A stretch of DNA of 64,000 nt, from NCBI RefSeq assembly GCF_004010195.1, contig NC_057759.1:2399199-2463198 (forward strand). The letters are read 5' to 3'. Positions 25,347 through 62,971 of the stretch are shown piece after piece. The notes under the pieces were generated by a model. It did no database searches and was not told the origin of the DNA. It was given only the letters and a program-made list of their open reading frames with translations. The position numbers and the translations under genes are program-made. The number at the start of each line of letters is the position of its first letter. Positions within the stretch are counted from its first letter, which is position 1. This DNA comes from Chiloscyllium plagiosum. Lineage: Eukaryota.

Positions 25347-25574
25347 TTTCTGATGAAACTCTAACTCTGGAAGCCAATTCGCAACATGCTCTGAGAGACA
25401 AGAAAATTGTCATGAACTGCCAGATCCCATCCCAGAATTTGAAATGGTGTGAGCTTTTCCAATGGTAATGGAATTTCGGGTTAATAAAGGAAAATGAAGA
25501 TTGTTCATTCGCAACAGAAAGTGCAGCGTATTCAGATGAGGCATCTTATCAAACTGAATTAAAAATTGACGTTA
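25347..25574 (+). pseudogene. Disabled Ig-domain exon (FcR D2-like), receptor gene 1
   Basis: tttctttacag acceptor, phase 1. Reads (V)SDETLTLEANSQHALRDKKIVMNCQIPSQNLKWCELFQW*WNFGLIKENEDCSFATESAAYSDEASYQTELKIDV. In-frame TAA at 25466-25468, second Cys missing after DxxxY, donor reads ggaagt instead of gtaagt. Confidence 0.6.
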
Positions 25575-25689
25575 GGAAGTCAGTTTTGAACCAGCTAAGC
25601 CTCACAGTATCAGGTTTGTCATTCCTTTGTCTAGTTAGTGCTATTGAATATATTGATGACTCTATACCGCCTCTTTGTAATCTGATTTG

Positions 25690-26830
25690 GGCAGTACTCT
25701 CCCAGCGATGGAGACTTAAGGACAGGAGGAAGGCTGCTTCATCAATGATCTTCCCTCTATCATAAAAATAGAAGTATGGATGTGCACTGATATTTGTGCA
25801 ATGTTCAGCACCATTCGCCATTCCTCAGATACTGAAGCAGTCCATTATCAAATGCAACAAGTTCTCGAAATTATCCAGGCTTGGGTTGACAAGTGACAAG
25901 TTACATTTATGCCACACAAAGCCACACAATGTCCATCAATAATAATGGCTTTTGACGATGGGCTTTAGCCCGAAATGTCGATTCTCCTGCTCCTTGGATG
26001 CTGCCAGATCTCCTGTGTTTTGCCAGCACCACACTCTCGACTCTGATCTCCAGCATCTGCAGTCTTCAATTTCTTCCATCAATAATAGCAGACAATACAA
26101 CCATCACCCCTTTACATTCAATGGTGCTACCATCACTGAGCTTCCTATGAAAATCATTCTGAGGTTTACCTTTGAGCAGAAACTCACCTGGACTCGTCAC
26201 ATAAACATAGTGGCTTAGAGAGCAAGTCAGATGCTGGGAATCCTGCAGCGAGTAACTCAATTCCTGACTCTCGAAAGCTTGTCCATCGTCTACAATGCAC
26301 AAGTCATAAGTGTGAAGGAATATTCGCCACTTGCCTCGATGGATGCAGCTGTAAAACACCCGATATGTTCAAAACAACCCATCATTCCGCAAAGCTACCC
26401 CCACTCAATTGGTGCCACATCCACAAACATCCACTACCTCCACTGCCAATGCTCAGTAGCAGCACTGTATGCATTCTACAAGATGCACTACAGATATTGA
26501 CCAAATATCCTCAGATATCACCTTCCAAACCCTGAATCACCTTGATCTAGATAGACAGCAGGTACATGCAAACAAAATCCATGCCAGTTCTTCTCCAAGA
26601 GAATCACCATCGTTACTTGGAAACATATCAATAGTCCCCCCAGTGTCACTGAGTCAAAATCCTGGAGTTCCTTCCTTAAGGGCATTGTGGATCTACATAC
26701 TACAGATTGCAGCGGTTACAAACGACAGCTCACCATCACATTCTGATGAGTGGCCAAGTAAGAACAGACAATTACGTAGTGGCTAACCAGCGATGCTCAT
26801 GTCCCATGTTTTGATGCAATTGCGCTGGGC
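25690..26830 (+). mobile_element. Non-LTR retrotransposon 3' part (RTE-X-like)
   Basis: LGILQRV...YNAQV..V.EYSPLA C-terminal motif. Confidence 0.6.
25945..26074 (+). mobile_element. Solo Penelope pLTR fragment
   Basis: Perfect 13-bp TSD tccatcaataata at 25932-25944 and 26075-26087. Confidence 0.85.
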
Positions 26831-29600
26831 GAGCCTATACCCTGGATTATGGCGTGTGCAGTTTGCGTCTCCTAATTTGAGGAAGGGTGTTCTAGCTATG
26901 AAGAAAAGACAGCTACGATGTCCCGGACTGATTTGTGCGATAATAGGGCTGACGGATGAAGAGACACTGGATTGTTTACGATGATGTTCACTGCGGTTTA
27001 GATGAATGAGAGGAGATCTGGTAGAGAACTGTAAAATTATAACAGGAGATATCAAATGAATATATTTGCATCAGATTCTACTGTTGAGGAAGAAACACTG
27101 ACCCGAGACCTCACGGAAGTAAAATTGAAGTTTTGAAAATAGTTGACATTTACAGAAGTGCTAGAAATGTTAAGAAATATAAAGGTACAGAAATGACCAA
27201 AACCTGATCAAATGCATCCAAGGATACTATGGGGAGTTAGCGAGGAAATTGAGAGGCTCATACACGGGCGAACTACCAGAGAACTGGACGACAGCTAACT
27301 TTGTGCCCTTGTTTGAAAATGGCTGTAAGTCGAAGCCGGGAATCTAAAGACCTGTGAGAATGATATCGAAGATTGGTAAGTTGTTGGAGGTAATTCTGTC
27401 AAAAATCACCTCCTTGAAGAGGCAAGGATTGATTTGGCAAATTTCCTCGTTTTGAGCGTGTTGTTGTCTTTTTAGACAGTAGGTCTGTGAAAGGCAATGT
27501 TCCGCCGGGATCGGTGCCGGGTCCACTTTGATTGCTATTTATATAAATGATTTCAGTGAGAATATAGAATCATGATTAGTAAGTTTGCAGGTGATATCAA
27601 AATTGTTGGACCATTCACAAGGTTATCTAAGATTTCCATGTGATCTCGATCAATTGCTTCAATTGACTGAGGAATAGCAAATAGAGTTTAATTTGAATAA
27701 ATGTGAGATATTGCATTTTGGTAATACAAACAAGAACAGGACTTATACAATTAATGGTAGGGTCCTTGGTTGTATTGAAAGACAGTGGAATTGCTAGGGG
27801 TTCAGGTTCATAATTCTTTCTAAATCTGAGTCACAACTGGATTTGATGGTTAAGAAGGCATTTAGCATGCTTGCATTCATTGTTCAAATCATTGAATATT
27901 GGATTTGGTATGTCATGTTGAAGTTGCATAAGACATTGCTGAGGCCTCTTCTGGAATACTGTGTGCGGTGCTGGTCTCCCTGTTATAGGAAGGATATTAT
28001 TAAATCTGAGCGGGTTCAGAAAAGATTTACCAGATGTTGCCGGAAATTTGTGGTTTGAGACATAAAAATAGTTTAGAAGGGCTGGGACCTTTTTCACTGG
28101 GGCAGAGGAGATTAAGGGGTAACCTTATTGAGGTTTCTAAAATCGCAATGGATGTAGGTAAGGTGGGTAGCCAAGTTCTTTTCCCTAGCGCTGGGAAGTT
28201 CATAACCAGAGGGCATATTTTTAAGGTGTGAGGACAAAGATTTACAAAGATATGAGGGGTAACTCTTTTACGCAAAGTGGTTAAGAACTGTGGAACTGTG
28301 GTTAAAGCGTGGAAAGAGCTGCCAGAGAAAGTCATAAATGCAGGTATCGTTGAAAGACATTTGCATAAGTTTATGAACATAAACAGGTTGGAGTAATATG
28401 GCACAATCGCAAGCAGGTGTGATTAAGTTAGTTTGGTGACACGGTCAGTGTAGACTGCTTGGTCCGAAGGGTCTGTTGCATCAATGGCTAACTACAATAA
28501 ATTTAAAAAAAGGATGTTCCTGATGTTCAAGGTACTGGGGGGAGTTCAATTCCAGGGCGTCCCAGTTTAAAGGATATGGCTAGGCCTGAGATGGGGAGAA
28601 ATGACTTCACACAAAGGGAGATGTCCATGTGTTGTCTATCAACACATTAATTCCTATTTTAATCGACAATTTGACATCACTTGCGTGCAGTGATGTTTCT
28701 TTTGAGGTGTGACATAAAATTGTTAGTCTCATTCGCATTTCTCTTGCTGAGCGTGCGCTCTTCTCTGTTTCCTGCGCTATTTTAATATTCTCTCTCCTTG
28801 CCTTTGACACTTATAGCTTCTTTTATATTTTGTGCCAATCCACATATTGTATCTGTACATCAGCTTCTCCTCATCTCCAGTCACATTTGATTTCATCTGA
28901 CGCAGAAAAGGTGTTCTAACTGATATTGTCTGATAGTTTATGAGAAGCAAACGAGCTGAATGGCCTCCTTCTGTTCCAATTTCTTCTGGTCCCCCATGGG
29001 TAAGAAGCAGTAAACTGTACTCAATATTCCAGGGAAGTTGAAAGCAAATTAGCGTGAAGTATGTATTGCAGTCTGCGAGCAATTCTGGGCCCCCTGCAAT
29101 AGGAAGGATGTTGCAGAATATCCAAGGGTTCTGAAAAGATTCAAAACACTGTTGCCTGGATTGGAGAGTTTGAGCAGTAAAGAGAGGTTGAATAGGCTGG
29201 GGTTATTTTCTCTGGAGCATTAGGGGTTGAGGGGTGACTTTTATAGAGCTTTATAAAATCAGCAGGGACATGGATTGGGTAAATAAACAACTTTTGTTTC
29301 CAAGGGGAGGGGAGTGAAAAACTCGATGGCTTGCATACGGTGAAAGAAGAAAGGATTCAAAAGGAAGCTTAAGAGCACCTTTTTTTTTTACCGCAGAGGA
29401 TGGTGCACGTATGAGAAGAACTGCGAAAAGAAGTGGTGCTGATGGGGGAACTTACAACTTGTCAAAAGCATCTGGATGGATATGTGAACAGGAAGGTTTA
29501 GACGGACATAGGCCAAATGCTGGCGAATGGGATGTCCAGTCAGCATGGACCAGATGTACTTACGGTCTGTTTCTGCGCTGTATAACTCTATGGGTTCTAG
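26830..29600 (+). mobile_element. Cluster of CR1 fragments
   Basis: Repeated RPLLEYCV..WSP..RKDI..ERVQKRFT motifs and 3' tails. Confidence 0.8.
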
Positions 29601-30154
29601 TCATTGGGAAGCCGGGAGTTGTTACATAGTCAAGGTAGGGAGGATGCACCTTGGAGGAATTCCCTTGGTGATGCGAAGTCTGAGGCACAGAATGTTTCAA
29701 TAGAATGGCCAGTGGAAGAGTGCATCATTCGGTATAATTTATGATGATAAATTATTTCTGGACGACGAATGAAGCAACTTTGGTTCAAGTTGAATGGGCT
29801 TAAGATACAACCGGATTGGAAAGAGGCAGAAAAGAGCATTTGATTTTCTTAGAATGATCTTAGAATTTCCCTGTGTTTCGGTCTCCATAGACAGCACCAG
29901 CCTTTGAGTCCCCGCGAACGCGTGTATTTGATATTTGTATACACCATAGAGTGTGGGCATCTCTGTCTGGGCCAGCATTCGTTGCCTATCTTTAGCTGTT
30001 CCCTTGAAACGGATTTTACGGAGTTCTGTTCGTAAATCACTGCAGTCCACTCACAACAGCTCCGTTTGTGGTCAGTGTGATCAACAAAATATTGAGAGTG
30101 GGGAGACTAATTGTTGGCCGTTAAGGGCTGATGTTCAGATTTTCACTGAATGGT

Positions 30155-30517
30155 GAGAGCTGGTCGTGTCGTTTCGTGGCTAGTTGGTGTTCATGGATGC
30201 AGATCGTTAGCTGTCTTCCTTCGTAGCCACACACGCAGATGACAAGCAACATGAGTTTGACTGGGACAACACTACTATTATAGGACAAGCCAAACAGAGA
30301 ACAGCCAGGGAATTCATAGAGGCATGGCACTCATCCACTGATTCAATCAACAAGCACATCAACCTGGACCCAATATACCGGCCACTGCAGTGGACAGCTG
30401 GGAATTGACAACCGGAAGCAGCAGAGACAAATCACTATAAATGCCACAGAAATGATCACAGAAGCGCTTCACAGGAGGCTCCCAAGCACTGAGGATGTCA
30501 CCTAGACAGGGGATGAA
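30155..30517 (+). mobile_element. Penelope-like fragment (second family) with a 5' inversion
   Basis: Minus-strand GRQLTICIHEHQLATKRHDQLS joined to plus-strand SFVATHADDKQHEFDWDNTTIIGQAKQRTAREFIEAWHS; CTGAGGA core at 30489. Confidence 0.8.
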
Positions 30518-30519
30518 GT

Positions 30520-31050
30520 GTAAGACTTCAGTTATGCCTCATTTGGAGGATTGTGTGCAGTTCTGGTCTCCCTATTAAAGGAAGAATGTGGAAGTTTTGG
30601 AAAGGGTGCAAACGAGGTTTACCAGGATGTTGCGTTTATTGGAGTGTATTAGCTATGAGGAGAGGTTGGACAAACTTGGTTTGTTTTCGCTAGGACATTG
30701 GAGGTTAGGGGGTGGTGGGGTGTATGATCGGAACAAAGTATACAAAATTATGAGAGGCATGGACAGAGCAAATAGTTGAAAATGTCCCAGGGTGAAAGTG
30801 TAAAATACTGGAGGATTGAGGACATAACTTTAAAATGAGAGGGGGAGAGTTTAAAGGAGATGTGAGACGAATGGATTACACAGAGACTGGAACTTGCTGC
30901 CAGGGGAGGTGACAGAAGCAGTTACGATACCAACGTTTGTGAGCAATTTAGACAGACACATGAACAGACAGGAATAGAGAGATATGGACCATGTGCAGAC
31001 AAGTCGGATCAGAGTAGAATAACAGCATGATCGTTCGCCAAAGGATTTGT
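30520..31050 (+). mobile_element. CR1 3' end
   Basis: LERVQTRFTRML...YEERLDKLGLFSL. Confidence 0.8.
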
Positions 31051-31363
31051 TCCTGTATTGCAAGGCTTTACTACCTCGAAATCCAGAGTCTTAGCTTGTT
31101 TTAGCTTGAAACCCGCCATGGCAGATGGTGGAATCTGAATTCAATTGAAAAGAGAATCTATGTGACTCCAGCCCCACAATCCTTAACTGCCCTCTGTGTA
31201 ATGTGGGATGGGCAATAAATGCTGGACTACCCAGTGACAACCATTTCCAATGTATGAATGAGATGAAAAAGGAAACGGAAATAGATTTGACTGTGAGGAC
31301 GTTCCTAGTGGAGTGTGCACTAGGAACTCCACCGAATTACCTGGCATTTATCTGTAATTTCAG

Positions 31364-31648
31364 GATTTCCAGTGTCAAAACTGGAATTAGTATTTCAACC
31401 TAGAAAGGAGCTTATCGAAAGAGACACAGGATCCTTAATCTGTTCAGTCTCCAAGGGTCCTCAGCTCATTTATTATCAATTTTACCAGGGCTCAAGCATG
31501 CAACTGTGCTGGGAGTTTTCCAACAGCACTGAGCTTGTTAACAACATTGGATCCATCAACAGAAGGGATGAAGAGCTTTACCATTGCTCTGTGAAAATTG
31601 AGGTGACAGGCCCTCAACACAGTGAAGACATAGAGATCACAGTGATAG
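31364..31648 (+). CDS. Ig-domain exon (FCRL/LITR/PECAM-type C2/I-set), receptor gene 1
   Basis: tttcag acceptor and G|gtaag donor; 285 nt, phase 1-1, open. Encodes (G)FPVSKLELVFQPRKELIERDTGSLICSVSKGPQLIYYQFYQG...DEELYHCSVKIEVTGPQHSEDIEITVI, with both Ig cysteines and a PVS...LxC...G..I.Y.FY pattern. Confidence 0.85.
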
Positions 31649-31766
31649 GTAAGATCATAAAGGCTCTCTCCCAAAGATTGACTGAACCTTCAGCTCATGG
31701 GATCATCTCAAAGTTGGTGCTTCCCCCTGAAGGCCACACTTTCGATTAAACCCTCCTATATTTGAT

Positions 31767-32860
31767 CATAATGGTATTCAGCACGGAAGCAGGATCTTTG
31801 GCCCAACTCATTCATGCCTGTTTCCCAAACTCAGCTAGTCTCATTTATGGACGTTTGGACATGTCCATATATACCTTTCTTATCCACGCTCCTGTCTAAA
31901 TATTCGATTTTTTAAAAATGTTGTCATGGTATCCGCTTTTACCACTTCCTCTAGCAGTTCGTTCCAGATTCACATTGCCTTCTGGGTGAAAACGTTTCTC
32001 CTGAACTCTCTTTTCAATCTTTCCCCCTCAGCTTAAAATTAAGTTTTCTCCTTTTTTTCTTTACTCCTCCCGTATTCTGGGAAAAAGGACCTGAACAATT
32101 ATTTTTTACTCTCATGATTTTATAAATCTCGATAAATTCAGCCCGCAGTCTCCTGTGCTCCAGTGAAAACATTCCCAATCTGTCCAGTCTCTCCTTATAA
32201 CTCAAAACTTCCAGTTTCAGCAACATTCTTTTAGTTGTTTTCTGCATCGTCTTAAATTTGACAATATCCTTCCTGCAGCAACACAGCTAGAATTATACGT
32301 AGTACTTCAAATGTGACCTTATCATTGCTAATATTAATTGTGTACCAACATCCCTGTAGATTGCCACTTCAATACAGAGGAGGATCCGGAGTTGAGGAGG
32401 TGGGCTTATGAGCAGATGCTGAGTAGATTGGGATTATATTCATTGGAATTCAGAATAATGAGGGGGGATCTTATTGAAACATATTAAAATATGAATGGGA
32501 TCGATTAAATAGAAATAGATTTTATATTTACACTGTTAGGTAACACTAGGAAAAGAGGGCATGGCCTCAAGATTCCAAGAAGCATGTTTAGAATTGAGCT
32601 GAAAAGGAAGTTCTTCACCCAGAGGGCTGTTAATCTGTGGAATTCCTTGCCCAGGGAAAGAGTTGATGCCACTTCAGTAATCGCTTTTAAAGTTAAGGTC
32701 GACACTTTTTTTACAAAAAAGAAAAGGAATTAAGGGATATGATGAAAATGTGGGTAAGTGGAGCTGAGTCCATGAAATGATTAACCATGATCTCATTCAG
32801 TGGTGGAGCAGACTGGAATGGTCAGATGACCTACCCCTGCTCCTAGTACTTATGTTCGAA
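31767..32860. mobile_element. Two CR1 3' ends (minus 31767-32330; plus 32380-32860)
   Basis: YKERLDRLGMFSLEHRRLR and related motifs. Confidence 0.8.
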
Positions 32861-33292
32861 TACAGAACATGCAAGCACCCCAATAGCACGCTCTCTAGCA
32901 TACTGTTGACCTCATCTTTCTGTCTGAATCCACAAAGGATTTACATAATTTCAAAATTAAGACACCTGCATTTAGACTTCTGTTATGTTTTAGATAAATG
33001 TGTAATTTTCATTTTAGAAAATGCAAGGTTGATTTGCGAGATTGTTACATGATTACAAAGCTAATTATTCGTCCAGGCATAATACTGTGAAGCCAGTAAA
33101 TGCTCGTGAGAACTCCACTTGGTAGTGTACTCGGAGAATACCTATGGGTCAGAATTTGAAAGCTCAAGACCCACTGCAGAATGTGCAAATTACTATAAAA
33201 AAAGACTGATTACAAAATGAAGTAAATTTTGAGTTTTCTTCATGGTAATGTCCCTGATTTACCAAGGTAACTCCTTTGTGCCTTCACCGCAG

Positions 33293-33412
33293 TTCATTAT
33301 TCCATTGAACAGCTATTTCGCCTGTGTCTTGTAGTCATTATTTTGCTTCTGCTCAAACTCCTTCCTGCGCTCAGATTGAGAAATAAATCCAAAGAACTGA
33401 AGAGTATAAAGG
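33293..33412 (+). CDS. Transmembrane exon with N-terminal Arg (activating type), receptor gene 1
   Basis: ccttcaccgcag acceptor and G|gtaaga donor; 120 nt, phase 1-1, open and in frame with 31364-31648. Encodes (V)HYSIEQLFRLCLVVIILLLLKLLPALRLRNKSKELKSIK. Confidence 0.7.
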
Positions 33413-33499
33413 GTAAGAACGGTGTTAAGATTCTATTAGTGATGACAGTTTAACCACCAGAATTTTCTCATTGCCCTTCATGATTTTATTAAAGTAAAA

Positions 33500-34160
33500 C
33501 ATTGCCAATTTAGAGACAATGCACATCTAAATCCTCCTTAAATGTGATGAGTTTCTGTTTCTCCCACCCTTACAGGTAGTGAGTTTCAGATTTCCCATCC
33601 CGTCTGGATGAAAAAGGTTTCCCTCACATTCTCTCCAAACATCCCGCCCCTTATCTTCAATGCCCCTCTCCTAGTCAATGATTCACCCCATCAAAAAGAA
33701 AATTCGTCTTCCGTTTATCCTATTTTTGCCACTTATCACTTTATACATCTTAATCAAGTGCCACTCTCTCAAATGCCTCTACTCTGATGAAAATAACCCC
33801 AGTCTGTCCAATCTCTCTCTATCAATAAAAGTGTCCCGCCCGCAAGGCAAACCTCCTAGAAAATCTCCCTTTCCACACTCGCCCATTGCTAACCTGTCCC
33901 TCCTCAAATGTGGATTCCAGAACTGCATATAATACTCTTGTTGTGTGGCATAAATGATGTTTTATACAGGTCCTGCATTATCCCAACCGTGTTTAATTCT
34001 CGGCTGTTTAAGGTAAATATCCCCATTAAACGTCTGAAATATTTCATCCTATTCTGATAACTTCAGGGACCAGTGGACATACACACCGATGTCCCTCTGA
34101 TCCTCGGTGCTTCCCAGGGGCCTGCTATCAATCATGTGCTCCCCTGCCTTGTCTGTTAAT
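33500..34160 (-). mobile_element. CR1 fragment
   Basis: Minus-strand RT C-terminus pattern (tgtggattccagaactgca). Confidence 0.7.
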
Positions 34161-34365
34161 ATTTTTTTCAGAGCATCTTACATGTGGCACACAGTCTGGT
34201 ACCACTGAACATTGGCTTGGAGGGCACGAATTGTTGAAGATGTGGATGGTTTTGCTCAGGATGCTGTCTATTGTTACGTTTCACTACATTTGAGAATTTT
34301 TAAAGACTATTTTAACATATTTGTAGTGCCAAGATGATCTCATGCTTGTACTTTCTCCATCTCAG

Positions 34366-34373
34366 TAAAATGA
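34366..34373 (+). CDS. Candidate terminal exon for the Arg-TM isoform (V-K-stop)
   Basis: ctttctccatctcag acceptor; the phase-1 join gives GTA AAA TGA. AATAAA at 34540-34545 and 34570-34575. Confidence 0.35.
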
Positions 34374-34815
34374 CGTGGTCTTCTGAAACGTTACAAGGAC
34401 CGCTGACAAAGTCACAGGAAATTTTGAACATTTTGGGCATCAATCTCAGACCTTTGAATGAGTGTTACTACATTGAATTGATGTCCTGTTTATGCCTATA
34501 TCTTAATTCCTTATAGGGAATCTAACCTTCTAGGATAAAAATAAATATTTTGGCATGTCACATGCAACTAATAAACAAATGTTTCCTTAGAACGTAGTTA
34601 ATTGTACGAGAGCTTTGTTCCAGGACGGTATTGAATGAAAAGCTTTTGTTTTCCAATGCGAACTGATGTGAGCAATTACTTTTTTTTAAACTTCTAAATG
34701 CTGCATTGACTGCTGAAGAATAACAATGCGTTCCAAATGTACAACTGGAGCGCCAGTGTATTGGTGGCTGCTGAATATCTCCTTGTTATGGTCTAACATG
34801 TTACCTAATGGTCAC

Positions 34816-35194
34816 GTTAGGGTGTAGGTTTGCTCGCTGAGCTGTAGGTTTGATATCCAGACGTTTCATTACCTGGCTAGGTAACATCATCAGTGGCGAC
34901 CTCCAAGTGAAGCGAAGTTGTTGTCTCCTGCTTTCTGTTTCTATCTTTCTCCTGGATGGGGTTCCTGGGGTTTGTGGTGATGTTGAATGTCATCACCACA
35001 AACCCCAGGAACCCCATCCAGGAGAAAGATATAAATAGAAAGCAGGAGACAACAGCTTCGCTTCACTTGGAGGTCGCCACTGATGATGTTACCTAGCTAG
35101 GTAATGAAACGTCTGGATATCAAAACTACAGCTCAGCGAGCAAACCTACACCCTAAACCTCAACCTGAGCTACAAACCTTCACAAACCTTGCTT
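34816..35194. mobile_element. Fold-back Penelope pLTR pair
   Basis: ~165-bp near-perfect inverted arms (34817-34981 and 34991-35156); atggtcac duplicated at 34808-34815 and 35195-35202. Confidence 0.85.
35077..35116 (+). ncRNA. Minimal type I hammerhead ribozyme motif in a Penelope pLTR
   Basis: CCA-CUGAUGA-(UGUUACCUAG/CUAGGUAAU stem II)-GAAA-C-GUC-UGG, with stem I CCA/UGG. Confidence 0.65.
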
Positions 35195-35354
35195 ATGGTC
35201 ACTGTTAATCCTGGACTGTTAATCAGTCTGATGTTGATAGGGTACGAAGTACCCTCGGATGGGTTAAGAGACCTGAAGGATTCCAGTTGTCCCTAATTGT
35301 TATTAGTACCTTCGTTTTGACTGGAAAGCAACAGTGCCCATTTTAACTCACCAA

Positions 35355-36110
35355 TTAACCCAATAAGGAAGACAAATGCAATGCGAGCATTCTTTTTAAG
35401 AGGGCTTGAATATGAGAGCAGATGAAATGCTGAGGCTGCATAATGCTCTAGTCAGACCACATTTGGAACATTGCAAGCATTGTTTGGACCCGTATCTAAG
35501 GAAGGATGTGCTGAAATTGGAGGGGGTCCAGAGGGGTTCGACAAGAGCGATACATTGTCATATAAGGAGCAGTTGAGGACATTGTGTCTGTACTAGATAG
35601 ATTTTAGAAGGATGCGGAGTTGAATCTGACTGAAGCCGAGAGAAAATTGTGAGGCCTGGATAGAATGGATATAGAGAAGTTAATTCCACTCGATGGAAAG
35701 ACTGTGACCTGAGAGGCACAACGGCCAAGAGAAGAGATGGCCGTTTAGGAATGAGATGAGGAGTTTCTTCAGCTAAAGGGTGGCGAATCCATAGAAACCA
35801 TTGCTGCAGAGGGCCAAGTCATCGCTTGTAATTAAAACACAGATGAATAAGGTGTCCAGTTGTAAGGTGATCGATGGTCTCAGGGAGAAGACAGGAGAAA
35901 GGAGTTGAGAAACATCGCATGGCAGAGTAGATGGATGGGTCGAATAGTCTACAACGTGGAGATGCTGGTTTTGGTCTGGACTGGATAATTCAGAAGTCAC
36001 GCTGCAAGTTATAGTCCAACAGGTTTATTTGAAATCACAGACTTTCGTAGAGCTGTTCTTTCTTCAGGTGAAGTCTGAATGGTCTAATTCTGCGCCTGTG
36101 TTTTATGGTC
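35355..36110 (+). mobile_element. CR1 3' end with a nested Penelope pLTR fragment (~35955-36075)
   Basis: gtcagaccacatttggaaca motif; tatagtccaacaggtttatttg pLTR. Confidence 0.75.
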
Positions 36111-36546
36111 TGACCGTCTGTGTGCGTGTTGTAACAGCAAACGGAAATGGCTAAATCGTTAAAGTCAAGGTACACTCCTTGGATCTTCAGATGATCTGAG
36201 TGGTGACCACATAATTTAGTTTAAGAGTTTTTGGTAGTACTACCTGTGCAAGAGATTGGAATCTGTGACTCCACACATGATAATGTTTGGATCAACACCA
36301 ATCTACAAAAGAATGATCCACAAAATGTCATGTTCTTGAAACTGTGAATTTTGATCCTATTTTACACTGAATACAATCTTTCCATTGTGTCAGACTGCCC
36401 TTGTCCTGTTTTGTTGCAATCTTACATGAAGGTTTAATATCACAAATTACTGATTCCACATTTCACATGTACTTTGGTCGAACTAGATTATTCACTTATT
36501 TCAGATGCACTGCTGAGGTTTCATTTTCTTTACTTTTGTCTTTCAG

Positions 36547-36644
36547 TTGACGTTGTAATTATCTGCAGGTTTTCGTTTTACTTTTAATGATCTTTCTTGT
36601 TTTTTTTCTGCTGATACACAAGAATGCAATGTTCCCATTAGCAG
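36547..36644 (+). pseudogene. Second, uncharged TM exon with an apparent 1-nt deletion
   Basis: Long pyrimidine tract plus tttcag acceptor and G|gtgaga donor; 98 nt (99 would be phase 1-1). (V)DVVI, then a frameshift into LQVFVLLLMIFLVFFLLIHKNAMFPLA. Confidence 0.5.
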
Positions 36645-36999
36645 GTGAGAAACTGTGAAATGGGAATAGATGGGTAAGGTTGCTTCAAGGACCCCCAACT
36701 GAATTGGTGTATTGCATTTGAGGGGAATATTTAATTGAAATACTTCCCAATCATTGGGTAGAGTTCTGCTATTGCTGGTTTGGAAAGTAATGTCAGAGGT
36801 AAACTGGGGAGTATCTGCATTGCATATACTGCAAAGTACTGACTTTTTGAATCAGTGATAGGATGAGTTCAGAGACATGTATTAAAAGGTCGAATGATTC
36901 TAATTGCAGGAATGTAATTGTTGTGAGCTGTTGCATTTTCAATGAGTTATGTGACCATTCACTGACTATCGAGGTCTGTGAAAGACTCAGTCACAAGGC

Positions 37000-39600
37000 A
37001 AGACTGGACATCCTGAAGGTTAGTTAAACGTGACTTGAGGGAAGGAAGTGTATCAAACTGTAACCAGATTCGCAGAAGAAACAAAAAAATATGCAGAAAG
37101 GCAAGCTGCGAGAGGGATACAAATAGATTACAGGGCGATTTATTTGGATAAGTCAGGATGCAAAAAGTTGGCAAATGAAGTATGGTGCGGATCAAATGTG
37201 AAATAATTTACAGATAGCAATGAACGTTGTATATGGCTCGCTTTTCCATTCACACACATACAGATGGCAATGTCTTATTGAGACGTAAAATTCGACAATA
37301 CCAACATGAAAGAATAATTACAAGGATTGTGCAGTGCATTATTATACTTGTGCTATCTCTGGACAGAACGGTTTGTGACATTTGTCCAACACCGGCTCTT
37401 CCAAGTCATTGCATGATTACATTTAGCCTTTATTGTATTTCTTCATAAAGTAATATTCGAGCCTATTATGGTACTCACCAGCACTGCCTGCATCACTACT
37501 TTTACGTTTTGGGTCACTTTCTGAACTGAATTAAGGGTTAAGCAGGCCAGCGTCGATACAGAAACAAAGCGGGTGAGTCAAGTACTGATCTCAAAGGGGC
37601 GAGAAGCTTGTACCACGTTACCTGGAATGGCGCAAAATCAGGATGAGGCCGGGGATGGCAAACCGTGGATAACTGAAACCACTGAAATCGGATTCGTGGA
37701 TACTGCGGTCGTCCTGTATTTTGGAAGGGAAAAGCATTAAATAACAAAACTTATTTAAATGGAGATAAAATGCAAGATGCTCCAACACAAAGAGATTTGA
37801 AGGGACTTGTGCATGAAACACAGAAGGCGAGCACACAGGGACAGCAGGTAATCAGGAATGGCCAATGGAATGCTGGTCCTCATTTGAACTGGCTTGGAGT
37901 ATAAAAGTAGGGAAGACTTACTGTTACTGTGCCAGGTGATGGTGAGACCATATCTGGAAAATTGGGAGCAGTCTTGATCCCCTTATTTCAGGAAAGATAT
38001 CAATTCACTGAAAGCAGTCCAGACAAGTTTCTTTAGCATAATCCCTGCCATGTAGGGATTGTTTTATGAGCAAATGCTGCAAAATTAGGTACTCTACGCA
38101 CTGGTATATAAGAGAATGAAAGATGATTTCATTGATATCAATAGGAGTTTGACAGGGTCAATGCTGAGAGGATGTTTTCCCCCCTCATGGGAGACTCCGC
38201 GACCAGATGGCACAATCTCAGAATAAAGGGGCACCAACTGAAGATTTATATGAGAAGGGATTTCTTCACTCAGAGAGTTATGGATCTTTGGAACTCCTTC
38301 TCACAGGGAGCTGTGCAGAAGCAAAATCCTTACATATATTGAAAACAGAGACAGATATATTTTTGACCAGTTGAAGATTCAAGGGAAAATGCAGAATATT
38401 AAATGAGCCATGCCCTTATTGAATGGTGGAACAGGCTGAAGTGATCGAATGCTGGAAATGTGTTGCTGGAAAAGCGCAGCATCCAGGGAACAGGAGAATC
38501 GACGTTTCGGGCATAAGCCCTTCTTCAGGAAGGGCTTATGCCCGAAGGGATCGAATGGTCTATTCCTGTTCCTGGTTCTTATGATCTTATTATGTGGTTT
38601 AAGTGTTGCAAATGAAAAAGTTAGAAGACCACAAACATACAGCCGGTGGGGCGAGGCCACACCTGCTATATTATGTGTGCAGTTTGGGTCGCCTTATCTG
38701 ATAAAGGATTTTGTGCCTATGGAGGGAAATGCAGCGAACGTTTCGCAGACAGATTCCTGAGACGGCAGGTGAAGAGAGAATGTATCAAGGAGGATTATAT
38801 TCACTGGAGATTAGAAGAATGACAAAGGGGTCTGATAGAAACCTATAAAATTCTAATAGGACTAGACAGGGTAGATGCAGGAAGGATATTCCTTATAGTG
38901 GAGGGGTCCAGAACAAGGGCGTCTGACTAAGGATACAGGGTCGGCAATTTAGGAATGTGCCAGGGAGAAATGTCTCTCCCCCACAGAGTGTTGAACATTG
39001 TTGTTTCATCCCAAGACATTGTGCTTTCAAGAAGAATAGAGCTTCTGTGTTTTAAGGGAAATGGAGCGGAGGGCAAAATGAGGAGATCGAGTCAATGATC
39101 AGCAACAAACACATCGAATGGGCAGAGAAAGCTTGATGGGCATAATAGCCTCCTCCGGCTCCTATATTCTACGTTTCTATGTTGAAGATAATTTGTCAGT
39201 GACAGTCAAAGAGAGTAAGCTGAACTATTGATGAAAGGTAACTCAATGGTTCCTTCAAGGGATCACAGTGAAATTCACCGTTGACATGATGGTCTCCTTG
39301 GAAGCAGCTCACAATTGAAGTAAATTGCTCTCCCGAGATTTTAGATTTTTAAATCTTGTATCCAGACAATGCAAAAGGGATGTCAGGAAGCACTTCTGCA
39401 CACAAAGGTTGGTGGTGGATTGGAACTTTCTTTCACAAACAGCAGTGGATGCCAGATCAGTTGTTAGTTTTAAATCTGAAAGAGAGAATTTTTCATTAAG
39501 TAAAGGTATAAAAGGGATAGGGACCAAAGGTAAGTCTACAGAATTAGCCCACAGATTCGTCACTCAATGGTGGACCAAGATTGAAGGGCTGAATGACCTA
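37000..39600 (+). mobile_element. Cluster of CR1 3' fragments
   Basis: Several RT C-terminus and 3' UTR copies. Confidence 0.75.
38452..38543 (-). mobile_element. Tiny Penelope pLTR insertion with terminal hairpin, in a CR1 tail
   Basis: TSD gaag(t/g)gatcgaatg at 38438-38451 and 38544-38557. Confidence 0.8.
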
Positions 39601-40059
39601 ATCTTAAAGTCTCCCGTCCAATCGTATCTGTCAGTGCAAGTGAGTGCATCTTATTCTTAGCCTCCATAAATGCATACTCATGTATTAGTGGATCAAGCCG
39701 GTGTGTGATAACCTGCATCACGTGACAGTGGATGAATTGTAACAAATCTTTCCTCAGTTAAGGGGAATTCTTTGAAGTATGCACTCATGGGAACATAGGG
39801 AGAGGAGTAGGCCATTCAGCCCATTGACACTGTTCCATCATTGATGTATCAAGCACATACTTATTTCCTGGACTTCAATTACAATTTAGGATACATGCCA
39901 GATTTCAGATTTACTTTCTGGTCAGTGCCTGTGCCAGCCAATACGTTGACAGTGCATTTCCTTTTGATAAAAGTACAAAACAAGTAAGCCCAGTTAAATC
40001 AGCCTCGCTATCACTGGATTCACAATGTAGTAAAATTAAGAAAACAATTTCTTTACCAA

Positions 40060-40929: not shown

Positions 40930-41560
40930 GGCATAGTATATGCTGGAAGCCTGGTGCTGGATCCTCTCCACGGCATGGTGTAGGTTGGAAAGCTTGAAGG
41001 TCTGAAAGCCCAGAGCGAGACACTCTCGGCTGCATGGTGTGAACTGGGAATCATGGAGGGGGACACTGTCGGCGGCATGGTGTGGGATAGGAAGCCTGGA
41101 ATGGGACACCCCCAGTAGCAAGCGTGTGCTGGGGAACTCGGAGTGGAACACACTCGACTGCAATGCGTGGGTCAGTAAGCCAGGAGGGGGATACCCTTGG
41201 CTGCATGGTGCGGGCTGGGAAGCTCAAAGCGTAACACTCTAAGCTGTATGCTGTGTGCTGGGAAGCCAGGAGGGGCACATTCTTGGCTGCATGGTTTACG
41301 CTGGGAAGCCAGGAGGGGGACAGCCTCGGCTGCACGGTGTGGGGTGGAAAGCCCAGAGCTTGACACTCTCAGCTGTATGGTGGGCGCTGGGAAGCCAAGG
41401 AGGGGGACACTCTTGGCTGAATGGCACAGGCTGGAACACCAGGAGGGGAGACTCCTGGCTGCATGGTGTGGGTTAGAAAGCCAAAGGGGTCACTTTCAGC
41501 AGCATGGCGTGACTTGGGAAGCCCGCAGCGGGAGTCTGCTCGTGCTATGGTGTAGTTGCT
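40930..41560 (+). repeat. G-rich minisatellite, ~41-bp unit, roughly 15 degenerate copies
   Basis: Unit resembles ggctgcatggtgtgggctgggaagccaggagggggacactc. Confidence 0.9.
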
Positions 41561-45319: not shown

Positions 45320-45617
45320 TCTAGATTAGAGTGGTGCTGGAAAAGCACAGCAGTTCAGGCAGCATCCAAGGAGCAGGAAAATCGACGTTTCGGGCAAAAG
45401 CCCTTCATCAGGAATAGAGGCAGAGTGCCTGCAGGATGGAGAGATAAGAAACGATCGTGAGCTTCCTGCAGGCACTCTGCCTCTATTCCTGATGAAGGGC
45501 TTTTGCCCGAAACGTCGATTTTCCTGCTCCTTGGATGCTGCTTGAACTGCTGTGCTTCTCCAGAACCACTCTAATCTAGAATCTAGTTTCCAGCATCTGC
45601 TTTTGTTTTTACCCTGT
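45320..45617. mobile_element. Fold-back Penelope pLTR pair
   Basis: ~118-bp inverted arms; TSD aatagtcccat at 45309-45319 and 45618-45628. Confidence 0.9.
45486..45519 (+). ncRNA. Minimal hammerhead motif in a Penelope pLTR
   Basis: CUGAUGA-A-GGGC-UUUU-GCCC-GAAA-C-GUC; stem I is only about 2 bp. Confidence 0.55.
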
Positions 45618-45833: not shown

Positions 45834-45889
45834 ATGAAGGCAAGAGACAATGCCAACAAGGCCATTACTTAATTGTGGATATGCCATAA
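45834..45889 (+). CDS. Candidate last coding (cytoplasmic) exon of receptor gene 1
   Basis: Strong acceptor ttttctttttactctctcag; phase 1 gives (D)EGKRQCQQGHYLIVDMP*, containing YxxV. Confidence 0.45.
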
Positions 45890-48924: not shown

Positions 48925-48926
<2 letters not shown>

Positions 48927-55659: not shown

Positions 55660-56080
55660 ATTAAATACTGAGGCGATCTTACACAGATTAGGCCTGATTT
55701 TTTCCAGGATTTGGACGGTTAATGGGTGATCTGATCGAAGATATTGACAGGAAAAGACATGGTGGATAAGGAGAAGCTATGTCCACTTTATGGGGAAATT
55801 GTGAGGGCATAGTCTGAGACTTAGGACTGGACCATTGAGGAGAGATGTTATGAAGCACTTCCACATCACAAAGGCTGGGAGAGATTTTTAACTCTTTTCC
55901 AGAAACGGCAGTGGATGATGGAGCAGTTGTGAAATTTCAATCCGAGATCGATCAATGTTTGTTTAACAGCAATATGAAGGTGATAGGGGCCAAAGGCAGT
56001 TATATGGAGATAAGCCACAGATCAGCCATTAAATAGCAAAATAGGCTCGTGAGGCTGAATGACCTACTGCTGTTCCTGTG
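55660..56080 (+). mobile_element. CR1 3' end
   Basis: 3' UTR ggctgaatgacctactgctgttcct. Confidence 0.7.
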
Positions 56081-56159
56081 AAAGCAATTGACTAACTGGA
56101 AATGTGAGCACAGTATGGAGCGAGCAACCTCTTTTTCTTGTTACTGTCTCCTGTTACAG

Positions 56160-56277
56160 GTAAATGTGAGTGAGCAAAGGCATTGCTGTAGCAGGCACCA
56201 GGTCATTCTGAGTTGGAAACTGCTGTGCCATCAAACCGCGTCGGAAATATCGCAGATCTCCGTGCTTCTGATCCTCT
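56160..56277 (+). CDS. Leader (signal peptide S1-like) exon of receptor gene 2
   Basis: ctcctgttacag acceptor and T|gtaagt donor (phase 1). The last 31 nt (56247-56277) read ATA-SQISVLLIL and join in frame to the Ig exon at 62726. Confidence 0.5.
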
Positions 56278-56452: not shown

Positions 56453-56719
56453 GGAATTGTGAGCTTGGATGATAGCGTTTCCCGAGAGAGGGAGAGAGAG
56501 AGAGAGAGAGAGAAAGAACGAGCATTTCAGGTTATTGTCCTTTGTACAATATTATTCAATCTTCTCTGAAATGGATGCAAGTTACACACACACGTACACT
56601 ATGGTCAGAAAATTTCAGGAGAATTTCAGAATACCGCAAAGGAATGGAAACGCGATTACTTTTCATCAACAATAAGACATTTAGCAGGCTGTCACCTTGG
56701 GATCTGGAGAGTTTCAGTG

Positions 56720-57120
56720 ATGGAGCGAGATTGGACAGAGATGGATTGTTTTCCTTAGAGCAGAGGAGATTGAGAAGTGGGGTGGGAGGTTGTGGTGGGA
56801 TATGAAGTATGAAATGATAAGGGGGTAGAGAGGGTAGACAAGAAAAATGCCTTTCCCTTTGATGGTGAAATCAATAGCGAGGGTGCGGGTTTCGGACGGG
56901 ATGAATAGATGGAAGGTAAGGGGGAGGAGGTGTAGATGGGATCTGAGGCAAAAATGAGGGTGATGGAGAATCACTGCCTGTAAGGGTCCTTCAATGTGCA
57001 CTTGCGAAACCAATGTGCCAATGCTGGGAAAATGGGACGACAGTATAGTCAGGTGATTGTTTCTGACTGGCACAGATTTGATGGGCCGAAAGGTATTTTC
57101 TGCGCTGTCGACCTCTTTGG
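56720..57120 (+). mobile_element. CR1 3' end
   Basis: GLFSLEQRRLR. Confidence 0.7.
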
Positions 57121-58289: not shown

Positions 58290-60500
58290 AATCAGGATGG
58301 GAGAAGAAAATGCAAATCCTAATTTAAAGAGGGTTGGAGTATAAGAATAGGGAAGTCTTTCTGCAACTAAACAAGGTGCTGCGGAGACCACACCTGGAGC
58401 ACTTTGAGCAGTTTTGCTCCCCTTATATAAGGAAAAAGAGAATTTCGCTAGAGGCAGTTCAATGAAGGTTTACTGGGATGATCTCTAGTACGAAGGATTC
58501 GCATATAGACAAAGACTAAATAGATTGGACTCTACTCACAGGAGTTTGGAAGAATGTGAGGTGATCTCACTGAAACATATAGAGGATCAATTCTGAGACG
58601 AGGATGCCCCCTCATGAGACAGTCTAGGAGCAGAGGACATAGTCTCAGAATAAATTGTCACTAATTAAAGACTGACATGGGGAGGAATTTCTTCTCTCAC
58701 AGGGTTGTGAGCCTTTCGAACTCCTTGTCACAGAGAAGGTGGTAGTGAGTGCCTTGTTGAATTACTGCGGTTCCAGTGCTCTAGATCGGGTTAAAATGCG
58801 TTTGGAGAAGGAATTCCAGGAATTTGTTTCAATGACACTGAATGTACAGCCAATTTTCCAAGTCGGGATGGCGAATGGCTCGGACGGGATGGTGTTCCCA
58901 CGTATCTGCTGCCCTTGGCTTTCTGAATGCGAATGTTGATTAGTTTGGGAGGTGGTGTTTGAGGAGCTATTGCGAATTTCTCCAGTGGATCTTATAGATC
59001 GTAGACGCTGCTGCTACTCTTAAAGATCAAGGATTTTTCTTTGCGTTTATCACCAGGAGATGGGGGAGATACTGAATGATTATTGTGAGTCAGTTTTGCT
59101 ATTGAGAAAAAAATAAAGCCAGGAGAATACGGAGCAATAAATTCAGATGTTTCTAAACCAGTTCACATCACAGAAGAGGATGTTCGAGAGGTCTTAGAGA
59201 ATACAAAGGTGGATAAATCTCCTGAACCTGATTCAATGTATGGCAAAGTGTTATGGAAAATACAGAGGTTAATTATAAGGCATCTTGCAGAAATATTTCC
59301 ATCATCTATGACGATGGGTCAGGTGCCTGATGTATGGAGGGTGGCTAATGCTGTACCTTCCTTTAAGACAATTTGTAAGGAGAAACTGAGTAACTGTATA
59401 CTTGTGAATCTGCCTGCAGTTGTGGCTAAATTGTTACAGGCGATTCTAGTAGAAAGGATATGTGTTCATTTCGAGAGGCATCAATTGATTAGGGATCATC
59501 AGCAAAGTTTTGTGTGAGAAAAATATCGTCACAAACTTGCCTGAGTTTTCTGAAGGTCTATCAAACAGACTGATGAGGACAGTGCAGTTGATGTTGTTTA
59601 TTTTCATGTCAGTAAGCCTTTGACAAGGTTCAGTATGGTAGAATAATTAGCAAAGTTACGTCATATAAGATTCAGGGTGAGCTTCCCAGCTGGATACAGT
59701 TATCTTTCCAGAAGAAGATAGAGTGTCATGATAGAAAGTTGCTTTTCAGACTGGAGGCATGTCACCAGCGGCGTTCCGCACGGATCGGTTCCGGGTCCTC
59801 TTTTGTTTATCATTTATATGAATGGTTTGGATGAGAAAATGGAATAATTAGCACGTTTGTAGATGACAATAAAAGTGCGGCTTAGTCGAAGTGAATAAGG
59901 TTTTCAAAGATTACAAACGAATCTTGAATAATTGAGTCAATGGGCTGAAAAATGGCAGATATGGGGGACAGATTTACAGACTCGGAGGCACCTTTTTAAG
60001 GTGAAAGGAGAGAGCTTGAAAAAAGACATAAGAGGCTACCTTTTACCCACGGAGTTTTTTTTTTTACTCTGAGATGAACTTCCCGAGGAAGTTATAGCTG
60101 TGGGTGTAATTATGTTAAAAAGACATTTGGATTAATACATTATTCGGAAATGTTTGGAGGGATATGGGCCAGGAGCAGGCCGGAGGGACTTGTTTAGTTT
60201 GGGATTATATTCGGCATAGATTGGTTGGACTGAAGGGTGTATTTACATGCTGTAAGACCCTATGACTTTATACTGAGTACCGCTGATGGAGGGAGTGGAT
60301 ATTTAGATATTTAAATGTGGTGCCCATCAAATGTGCCAATCTTGTCCCTGAATGCATGGAGCTTTTGGAGTACTGATGGATCTGCAGAAATTCAGGAAAA
60401 TGGGAAGTATTCCATCACACACCTCAGTTGTGCCTTTTCCATGGTGGACAGGCTTTTGGGGAGAATCAGGAGGTGAGTTACTCGCTGCAGTGCTGCTGCT
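58290..60500. mobile_element. CR1 fragments (plus) interleaved with RTE-X-like fragments (minus)
   Basis: DKSPEPD..WRVANAVP RT motifs in 59209-59517 and 3' tails. Confidence 0.75.
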
Positions 60501-60508
60501 TAATAGTG

Positions 60509-61624
60509 GAGAAAGTGAGGACTTCAGATGCGGGAGATCAGAGCTGAAAATGTGTTGCAGGAAAAGTGCAGCAGGTCAGGCAGCATCCAAGGAACATGAG
60601 AATCGACGTTTCGGGCATGAGCCCTTCTTCAGGAATGAGGAAAGCGTGTCCAGCAGGCTAAGATAAAAGGTAGGCAGGAGGGACTTGGGGGAGGGGCGTT
60701 GGAAATGCGATCGGTGGAAGGAGGTCAAGGTGAGGGTGATAGGCCGGAGTGGGAGCGGAGAGGTCAGGAAGAAGATTGCAGGTAAGGAAGGCGGTGCTGA
60801 GTTCGAGGGATTTGACTGAGACAAGGTGGGGGGAGGAGAAATGAGGAAACTGGAGAACTCTAAAGACCACTCCCTCCGTGACTCCCTCGTCAGGTCCACT
60901 CCCGGCACCTTCCCCTGCAACCGCAAGAAATGCAAAACTTGCGCCCACACCTCCCCCCTTGCTTCCCTCCAAGGCCCCAAGGGATCCTTCCATATCCACC
61001 ACAAATTCACCTGCACATCCACACACATCATTTATTGCATCCGCTGCACCCGATGTGGCCTCCTCTATATTGGGGAGACAGGCCGCCTACTTGTGGAACG
61101 TTTCAGAGAACACCTCTGGGACACCCGGACCAACCAACCCAACCAACCCGTGGCTCAACTCTTCAACTCCCCCTCCCACTCCACCAAGGACATGCAGGTC
61201 CTTAGACTCCTCCATCGCCAGACCATAGCAACACGAAGGTTGGGGGAAGAACGCCTCATCTTCCGCCGAGGAACCCTCCAACCACAAGGGATGAACTCAG
61301 ATTTCTCCGTTTTCCTCATTTCCCCTCTCCCCAACTTGTCTCACTCAAATCCCTCGAACTCCGCACGACCTTTCTAAACTGCAATCTTCTTCCTGACCTC
61401 TCCGCCCACACCCACACTCCGGCCTATCACCCTCACCTTAACCTCCTTCCACCGATCGCATTTCCAACGCCCCTCCCCCAAGTCCCTCCTCCCTACCTTT
61501 TACCTTAGCCTGCTGGACACACTTTCCTCATTCCTGAAGAAGGGCTCATGCCTGAAACGTCGATTCTCCTGCTCCTTGCATGCTGCCTGACCTTCTGCGC
61601 TTTTCCAGCAACACATTTTCAGCT
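60509..61624 (+). mobile_element. Penelope-like element: inverted pLTR, GIY-YIG endonuclease 3' part, pLTR
   Basis: ORF FTCTSTHIIYCIRCTRCGLLYIGETGRLLVERFREH; ~320-bp inverted arms; TSD gctgctgcttaatagtg at 60492-60508 and 61622-61638. Confidence 0.93.
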
Positions 61625-61674
61625 GCTGCTTAATAGTGCTAGCGTCCTGGCTTCGATATTTCCCCTTGGGCTAT

Positions 61675-61900
61675 TGTCTGTCTGGAATCTCCTTCGGGTG
61701 CTCCGGCTCCTTCCACAATTCAAAGATGGTTAGGTTAGGTAAATTAGCCATGCTAAATTGCCTAAAGTGTTCAGAGATGCGTAATTTTGGTGCTATAGTC
61801 AGGGGTAAATATAGGGGAATAGGGTAGGGGAATGTGTGGGATACCTACCGCAGTTTAGTTTGGAATTATTGGCCCAAATGGCCTGATTCCACATTATACA
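61675..61900 (+). mobile_element. HE1 SINE, 5'-truncated
   Basis: tccttcgggtgctccggctccttccaca...taaattgcc body. Confidence 0.7.
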
Positions 61901-62029
61901 CGATGATAATCGGTACAGTTAAAACTTCCAAGCAGTAAATTAACTGATGTCTGTCAGTTATCGGCCCTTTGAAAACGAAACATACCAAGCTAATGGTTCG
62001 CCTCACAGTAATAATGCATCAAATATGCG

Positions 62030-62525
62030 GCCGAACTTGGATTATTGCATCCAATTCTAGTCACATTATTACAGGAGGAATGCAGAAGCTCTGGAAAGGG
62101 TTCAGAGGACATTTACTAGGATGATGCCTGGTATGGAGGGAAGGTCTTTTGAAGGCAGGCTAAGGGAGTGGAGACTCTTTTCGTTAGAGGGAAACAGATT
62201 GAGAGATAACTTAATTGAGACATGTAAGATAATCAGAGGGTTATATAGGGTCAACGGATGATGGCTAGCACGAGGGACATAGCTTTAAAGTGATGTGTGG
62301 CAGATGTACGACAGATGTCATAGGTAGTATCTTTACTCAGAGAGTAGTAGGAGCGTGGAACTCCCCGCTGCAACAGTAGTAAACCCGCCGACATTAAGTG
62401 CATCAAAATGGTCATTGGATAAACATATGGATGAAAATGGAATATTGTTGGATTGATGGGCTTCAGGTTGATTCCACAGCTCAGCACGATATCAAGGGCT
62501 AATGTTGTATACGCTATGCTCTATG
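62030..62525 (+). mobile_element. CR1 3' end
   Basis: gaaagggttcagaggacatttactaggatg and 3' tail. Confidence 0.75.
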
Positions 62526-62725
62526 CAATCCAGGATTAGGTGCCACCAAAATTCATCAAGCTCAAACCTTTTTGTCTTGACTGCATCGTTTGATCATTAG
62601 CCAATTTGAACTGGAGCTCTGCACATTGGGATACTGAGGTTGAACTGTGCGTTGTATTTATAGCAGTGAGAGTTCAAAATATATAATGATTGGATCAGTC
62701 TTTCCGCTTCTATCTCTTTCTTCAG

Positions 62726-62971
62726 GTTTTGGAAGGCCCGTGTTTTACATATACCCAACAAGTAGGTTTGTGAAAGAAGGAGAGACTTTAAAATTGGAAT
62801 GTGGGGCAGATAAAGGAAGAGTTGTTTATTGTTGCAAAAATGAAGAGCAATTCACTCAAACACAGAGCAATGCTAATGAAATACTCGTGAACAGTGAAAT
62901 TGCTGGATCTTATTCCTGCATAAGACATTATGAATGTCTCAAGAGTGCATCTGTTGTAATTGTCATCATTT
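62726..62971 (+). CDS. Ig-domain exon (FcR D1-like), receptor gene 2; gene continues beyond the window
   Basis: tctctttcttcag acceptor and T|gtaagt donor; 246 nt, phase 1-1, open. Encodes FGRPVFYIYPTSRFVKEGETLKLEC...IAGSYSCIRHYECLKSASVVIVII. Confidence 0.85.

Follow-up and report, generated by a model that had tools for sequence, protein, structure and literature searches.

Does the stretch of the Chiloscyllium plagiosum genome analyzed here (assembly GCF_004010195.1, contig NC_057759.1, positions 2,399,199 to 2,463,198 of the forward strand; the 64-kb window in what follows), in which immunoglobulin (Ig)-like exons lie scattered among repeats, encode working leukocyte receptors, and to which receptor family do these exons belong? 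A first-pass annotation had proposed that one gene ends and a second begins here, within a tandem cluster of Fc receptor-like (FCRL) receptors. We find it likely that two damaged gene copies are present in the window, one as its 3' part and the other as its 5' part, and that both are dead copies from a family of FCRL-related leukocyte receptors shared by sharks and rays.

Exons of two gene copies

The analysis was carried out on the 64-kb window, with the reversed window as control. In a six-frame translation, the frames were mostly repeat-derived (presumably pieces of CR1/L2-type reverse transcriptases and others), and three Ig-like segments were present, all on the plus strand. No other host gene was recognized among the open reading frames of the window. 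The exons that carry our argument are as follows.

25347-25613, plus strand: Ig exon A of gene copy 1 (family type A, D1/D2-like); 267 nt, AG/GT borders, phase 1
31364-31648, plus strand: Ig exon B of gene copy 1 (family type B, like D4, D5 and PECAM D5-6); 285 nt, AG/GT borders, phase 1, open frame
33293-33412, plus strand: candidate transmembrane (TM) exon, phase 1-1; 120 nt, AG/GT borders, length divisible by 3
56247-56277, plus strand: remnant of the first leader exon of gene copy 2; 31 nt followed by GTAAGT, starting with ATA
62726-62971, plus strand: Ig exon C of gene copy 2 (family type C, N-terminal, D1 position); 246 nt, AG/GT borders, phase 1, open frame

As proposed earlier, exons A, B, and C are phase-1 Ig exons in this order on the plus strand. 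They have AG/GT ends and lengths divisible by 3, and the Ig motifs quoted earlier are present in the sequence. The order A, B, TM and then leader, C fits the 3' end of one gene followed by the 5' start of another. The proposed order thus held, while the proposal of two working genes was not supported, in view of the lesions in every recognizable family exon, the missing exon types and the lack of spliced reads described below.

Profiles of the elasmobranch family scored exons A, B, and C at 77, 101, and 82 bits, respectively, while no domain profile exceeded 8 bits in the reversed window. By tblastn, exon A was 50 to 57% identical to carpet-shark proteins, and exon C was 42 to 58% identical to the N-terminal domains of such proteins. 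Exon B matched Pfam Ig_2 (E = 3e-6), and its top PDB match was FCRL5 (E = 1.8e-8). At 56247-56277, the leader profile of the family reached its highest score in the window (29.0 versus 23.6), and a further profile scan gave 9.1 bits there versus 0.5 bits in the reversed control. We found no convincing second leader mini-exon between 56278 and 62725.

Lesions in both copies

Exon A contains an in-frame TAA at 25466, and its second cysteine is replaced by threonine. In exon C, the core tryptophan of the C strand is replaced by cysteine. The leader exon has ATA where its relatives have methionine, and no in-frame ATG lies ahead of the donor at 56160; the leader exon proposed earlier stands as a 31-nt remnant. 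The damage in exons A and C and in the leader was absent from the first-pass annotation.

We then scored decay at columns conserved in at least 90% of the family, with the family members scored leave-one-out. Exon A differed at 5 of 10 conserved columns (family maximum of 5 among 24 distinct domains), exon B at 7 of 28 (maximum of 6 among 31), and exon C at 4 of 15, the tryptophan-to-cysteine change included (maximum of 4 among 14), while the family medians were 0 to 1 for all three domain types. Moreover, the profiles of domains V, R, Q, and E, of the family TM and of the family tail had no match in the window above reversed controls, and at least one of V, R, and Q lies between the two domains in 17 of the 19 relatives that have an A domain before the last B. 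A match to the E-type profile at 39997 (7.8 bits) was dismissed as chance.

Independent DNA and RNA reads were compared over 25300-37700. Where pieces are shown, contigs of two runs labeled organism A were about 99.4% identical to this stretch. Over the 3' half of exon B, the summed depth of further contigs was 175 to 1476, versus 10 to 33 on unique pieces, which suggests many paralogues, although copy number cannot be read from depth. Between exon B and the paralogous contigs of organism A, eight differences were listed, five of them silent; at the other three sites (N to S, E to G, I to N) the paralogues encode the residue of the family consensus, indicating that these three replacements are private to the present copy.

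In RNA run X5, a weak test, 1949 reads aligned, and none of the 15 joints shown (617 hidden) connected two exons. Of the aligned reads, 95% ran on into unlike sequence, and depth was zero in the bins of exon A and of 36547-36644 and at most 0.1 in the bins with the 3' half of exon B and the TM exon. No reads of run X6 aligned, which makes it no test, and no RNA dataset was listed as matching 31000-33600.

The features expected of a working gene, namely, a start codon, open exons, an intact Ig core and spliced RNA, were thus not found together in either copy. Judged from the sequence, both copies are probably pseudogenes. Three points weigh against this conclusion. Exons B, TM, and C keep open frames and intact splice sites, and because of this a product that skips exon A is possible. 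The TAA at 25466 rests on the assembly, with no independent contig piece shown there and 200 difference rows hidden. Finally, the X5 reads are about 2% of a single polyA run on single cells from unspecified tissue, and the 3' end lies outside their coverage.

The second of these points raises the possibility that the lesions are assembly errors and that both genes are intact. Both the TAA at 25466 and the ATA at 56247 are read from the assembly. We regard this explanation as very improbable, since the lesions are many, are mostly substitutions and are spread over four exons; since the contigs of the two runs agree with the assembly at the identity given above and show no indel in the out-of-frame TM-like segment; and since whole exon types are missing.

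A receptor family of sharks and rays

Exon B retrieved 13 carpet-shark proteins (13 of 88 candidates) at 67 to 76% identity. The family to which they belong was found in ten shark and two ray species, where automatic annotation labels its members "Fc receptor-like" or "PECAM-like." The carpet-shark members come from Chiloscyllium, Hemiscyllium, Stegostoma, and Rhincodon (P0001-P0023, P0025, P0026, and P0028), and profile search added members from Heterodontus, Scyliorhinus, Heptranchias, Carcharodon, Cetorhinus, and Mustelus and from the rays Hemitrygon and Narcine. Among the 30 of 150 listed proteins that were looked up by name, none came from a chimaera. The earlier description of the family as hidden does not apply, since automatic gene models already exist in related sharks.

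The members shuffle seven Ig domain types in the order C-A-V-R-Q-B-E. As their sequences show, the annotated relatives are type I membrane proteins with Ig exons, an uncharged TM, and a tail with consensus motifs of the immunoreceptor tyrosine-based inhibitory type (ITIM). A TM was present in 33 of 46 named records, which include isoforms and are not independent, and 32 of these 33 have at least one ITIM consensus. Several members within a species lie on contigs of equal size, which fits clustering.

Overall, the window exons were 42 to 76% identical to the annotated relatives, and in trees each paired with its counterpart domain in P0012 as sister (support of 99 to 100). The annotated shark and ray models have the same exon types in the same order (leader, C, A, and later B) as the window. 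However, the window copies are broken and lack V, R, Q, E, the uncharged family TM, and the ITIM tail. In addition, none of the 33 TM-bearing models has an arginine-bearing TM-like exon such as the one that follows exon B in copy 1. Model P0004 reads through at its end into sequence that matches the intron following exon B, which argues that the copies arose at the DNA level. They would then have decayed, and the two window copies are likely pseudogene by-products of birth-and-death tandem duplication.

The noncoding flanks at 56033-56149, upstream of the leader remnant, and at 25187-25330 match the odd N termini of P0010 and P0002, respectively. This suggests that these two models begin in promoter or intron sequence.

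Relationship to FCRL and PECAM1

Profile search, scores of whole proteins, the order of the domains and the predicted fold place FCRL5, FcgRI, and the FCRLs of turtle and paddlefish closest to the family, with PECAM1 as a near rival. The family is, with high probability, FCRL-related and closer to FCRL than to PECAM1, in support of the multigene FCRL-related family proposed at first for cartilaginous fish. Against PDB, family profile A1 found FCRL5 (7e-86), FcgRI (about 1e-25), and FCRL4 (2e-18) ahead of generic Ig proteins, and no PECAM1, LILR, KIR, or CD22 was among the best 60 of 125 rows. The C and A types alone found phage and bacterial Ig-like proteins first and FcgRs next, weakly.

The D labels of the reference proteins are our assumption, guided in part by tree grouping. 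Domain profiles V, R, Q, and E scored best with FCRL D2, D3, D3, and D6 (36.5, 56.5, 51.0, and 64.8), versus 31.6, 41.5, 43.0, and 42.0 for the best PECAM domains. Domain B gave near-equal scores with PECAM d6 (50.6) and FCRL D4 and D5 (45.6 and 44.0). Accordingly, the label D3-5 first given to exon B can be kept for D4 and D5, with PECAM1 D5/D6 alongside, and not for D3. Domain A scored with D2, D1, and CD22-like domains, so that its former label of D2 becomes D1- or D2-like (32 versus 31 bits, with CD22-like at 30). Domain C, previously labeled D1, was ambiguous by profile and not closest to D1, while it does occupy the D1 position in C-V-R proteins that are modeled like D1-D3 of FcgRI and FCRL5.

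In a mixture-model tree of 91 domains, V joined D2 (98/94), and E enclosed turtle D6 (100/99). R and Q joined D3 (86/82) in a group that also took in a single long PECAM branch, and a D1/D2 group (86/94) contained C and A. No LILR sequence was included in the trees. E grouped with turtle D6 in all three trees, and the membrane-proximal D6-type domain of the turtle, gar, and paddlefish FCRLs (P0029, P0139, P0030, and P0100) groups with shark domain E. On these sequences, this grouping is the most stable link between sharks and bony vertebrates that we found.

Whole proteins were compared by BLAST with reference proteins that had been retrieved with the shark profile and auto-named. An FCRL-labeled bony-vertebrate protein was the best match for 13 of 14 shark and ray proteins. 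The cyprinid "FCRL5" P0114, which we take to be LITR-like, ranked in the lower half for 12 of the 14 queries; no named LITR was among the proteins compared.

An AlphaFold2 model of the three-domain relative P0025 (predicted local distance difference test, 85.8; predicted template modeling score [pTM], 0.59) aligned over all three domains with FcgRI and FCRL5 at query TM-scores of 0.50 to 0.60 and root mean square deviations of 5.5 to 7.4 Å. The corresponding values were 0.26 to 0.29 and 16 to 19 Å for LILR/PirB, KIR3DL1, and CD22. The domain arrangement typical of the leukocyte receptor complex (LRC) was not seen in the model, as LILRB2, PirB, and KIR3DL1 aligned at 0.26 to 0.28 and 16 to 18 Å.

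Tetrapod FCRL1-6 and FcgRI and the FCRLs of turtle, gar, and paddlefish share with the family single-domain phase-1 exons and a 31-nt first leader exon, and V, R/Q, B, and E of the family, as matched above, follow the order of D2, D3, D4/5, and D6. ITIM-consensus tails are also shared, as is, in the models, the D1-D3 arrangement of FcgRI and FCRL5. On the other hand, identity between FCRL/FcgRI and the family is only about 25 to 30%, types C and A have no clear one-to-one match, and the second leader exon is 21 nt in FCRL but about 30 nt in the family, as inferred from protein lengths. Excerpts of PMC2413239 describe a signal peptide on two exons of 30 and 21 bp in mammals and in a fraction of the Xenopus XFL genes. 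They also place FCRL/FcR genes in linkage with CD2/SLAM genes, IGSF9, DUSP23, and TAGLN2.

An origin from PECAM1, or from a common ancestor of FCRL and PECAM1, would make the window a site of pseudogenes of that expansion and not of FCRL proper. Several results speak for PECAM1 and so weigh against a closer link to FCRL. The single-domain trees did not exclude PECAM1. A tree of 44 domains kept only the E-D6 grouping and did not recover V with D2, and approximately unbiased tests, which had no power, rejected none of five groupings (P = 0.27 to 0.50), V with PECAM d1 included (P = 0.50). Frog PECAM1 was the top match for 1 of the 14 proteins and second by 3 bits for another (P0012, 186 versus 189 bits), and its own best match was a member of the shark family. 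Furthermore, the folding alignment of P0025 held mammalian FCRLs and may bias the model, and several models are auto-named PECAM-like.

PECAM1 (CD31), a single conserved gene, indeed resembles the family in its membrane-proximal domains, which are like type B, in its ITIM tail and, for some members, in whole-protein scores that are nearly as high. FCRL/FcgR is nevertheless the better match for most domain types and for the N-terminal fold: the order of the best matches of V, R, Q, and E is that of turtle and gar FCRL, E goes with turtle D6 in every tree, and FcgRI and FCRL5 lead the PDB searches by sequence and by fold. We therefore judge an origin from PECAM1 or from such an ancestor unlikely and keep the FCRL-related family as the source of both copies.

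The frog proteins P0063, P0071, P0062, and P0066, auto-named hemicentin-, titin-, or sialoadhesin-like, score high with the family profile. Two of them have TMs with the motif NxxR, and their domains group mostly with FCRL D1-D3. By sequence, they look like mislabeled XFL-type receptors.

A candidate TM exon with a charged helix

The TM exon at 33293-33412 encodes Y-S-I-E-Q-L-F-R-L ahead of a hydrophobic stretch that contains an arginine and a lysine. It was the only TM-like phase 1-1 candidate in the 64 kb, compared to one in total over 60 shuffled windows. Frog relatives, three of them named, carry Y-T/M-x-Q-N-I-I/F-R-L. For an ungapped profile of the frog NxxR TMs, the exon was the top site (19.7, versus 15.5 for the next site and 15.2 for the reversed control). 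In pairwise comparison, its four highest z-scores (2.3 to 3.1) were all with frog NxxR TMs. Unspliced read-through past its donor reaches a stop after 13 codons. A regular expression of the TM motif, with 1 match versus 0 in 100 shuffles, was composed after the sequence had been seen and was not counted as evidence.

According to excerpts of PMC2413239, the NxxR TMs of Xenopus are encoded on the same exon as a short tail, and they associate with FcR-gamma; the window exon resembles this TM1 class, except that its motif is QxxR. The same excerpts describe XFL as a large family of tandem genes in which exons are shuffled and some members may be gene fragments or pseudogenes, as in the shark family. 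Activating and inhibitory XFL genes are about equal in number, whereas all shark and ray TMs that we retrieved are of the uncharged type.

One could thus propose that copy 1 is a live or recently lost activating receptor, in which exon A is skipped, exon B is spliced to the arginine-bearing TM exon, and the product pairs with an adaptor of the FcR-gamma kind that carries an immunoreceptor tyrosine-based activation motif. Exon B and the TM exon, separated by 1.6 kb, have open frames and compatible phases; the z-scores are in agreement with such a receptor, and the read-through would provide a short tail like that of the TM1-type XFL (excerpts of PMC2413239).

Several results argue against this proposal. 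Besides reading QxxR instead of NxxR, the helix has an extra lysine. HMMER profiles of the frog and family TMs did not pick out the exon (at most 0.8 bits). The uncharged TM of P0083 can likewise be aligned with it, in the same L-L-P register (z-score of 1.5), and the arginine could be a decay mutation. The N/QxxR motif occurred in 0 of the 33 TM-bearing shark and ray records. For the exon, a set of 33 candidate proteins contained no homologue and the ESM Atlas gave no usable match; both blanks are weak. A contig of run X1 spans the exon free of gaps, but it is the sole contig to cover it and has 88% likeness. Finally, no leader lies upstream within the window, and exon B is itself decaying. 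On balance, an activating copy 1 appears unlikely, and the role of the exon as an activating-type membrane anchor, as far as its sequence suggests one, is a lead and not a result. We continue to favor two dead copies.

Other candidate exons and repeats

Two further segments were considered as exons.

36547-36644, plus strand: doubtful second TM-like segment; good splice sites, 98 nt, hydrophobic run in another frame
45835-45888, plus strand: tail-exon candidate; strong acceptor, 17 codons and then a stop, one YxxV

Of the TM exons first proposed, the one at 33293-33412 was thus retained, while 36547-36644 could not be confirmed, as 98 nt is not a multiple of 3 and the hydrophobic run is out of frame. 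This segment had no family match by profile, and it had single-copy depth with no indel listed in DNA runs X1 and X2. Nor was the proposed tail exon confirmed: the family tail profile found nothing above the reversed control, the candidate at 45835-45888 included, and this candidate lies outside the stretch covered by reads and contigs. Hydrophobic stretches at 38554 (beside a short interspersed element [SINE]) and at 21814, 45640, and 48830 (simple repeats) were dismissed as TM exons.

A degenerate tandem array of 43 bp occupies 41019-41483, with about 11 copies and a higher-order period of 129 bp. The inverted repeat at 45320-45590, directly ahead of a (TG)n run, consists of two head-to-head copies of a common SINE-like element. 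Broken retrotransposon-like integrase and reverse transcriptase frames, which we take to be Gypsy-type, lie on the minus strand at 16600-18630. A frame with a GIY-YIG-like motif, presumably akin to a Penelope-type element, lies at 60820-61374 with SINE-like copies on its flanks.

Discussion

FCRL-type receptors signal inhibition through ITIMs and SH2 phosphatases. By analogy, the live relatives of the window copies would dampen leukocyte activation by recruiting SH2 phosphatases to their ITIMs. Binding of immunoglobulin Fc has been shown for some FCRL/FcR members only; to judge from the modeled fold, the relatives may bind antibody Fc through N-terminal domains like those of FcgRI and FCRL5.

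Automatic annotation already contains the family, yet reviews deny its presence. In the parts available to us, a 2014 survey reports that homologues of FCRL, of the FcR-gamma chain, and of the LRC were not found in sharks (PMC4016189), and a 2026 review states that FCRLs are lacking in cartilaginous fish and asks how Fc-dependent phagocytosis works there (PMC13337447). A reference list in the portion of PMC6795676 seen includes a 1988 paper entitled "Fc receptor for shark IgM." A study of bamboo shark B cells names fcgr1a-like, fcrl3, and fcrl5 in its accessible part (PMC11372145), and the four matching rows shown from its supplement are all from bony fish. Term searches of the accessible text of PMC4536121 and PMC5192425 added nothing on the family. 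Our literature search, with subscription journals mostly outside its coverage, found no description of the family. A 2021 paper in Immunogenetics deals with LITR/FCRL synteny and may already mention sharks.

The broader proposal that sharks and rays have true FCRL genes and, in the past or at present, an activating form with an arginine TM of the XFL/LILRA type is doubtful, though less so than an activating copy 1 as such. If it is true, paired inhibitory and activating Fc receptor-like signaling would already have existed in the last common ancestor of jawed vertebrates. The Fc receptor for shark IgM that was described functionally in 1988 would then have candidates among these genes.

The window copies, being probably dead, add little by themselves, and the interest lies in a family that contradicts the stated absence of FCRL. 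With a defined FCRL-related family in these fishes, specific proteins become available for binding tests with IgM, IgW, or IgNAR, and the origin of the family would move back to the first jawed vertebrates.

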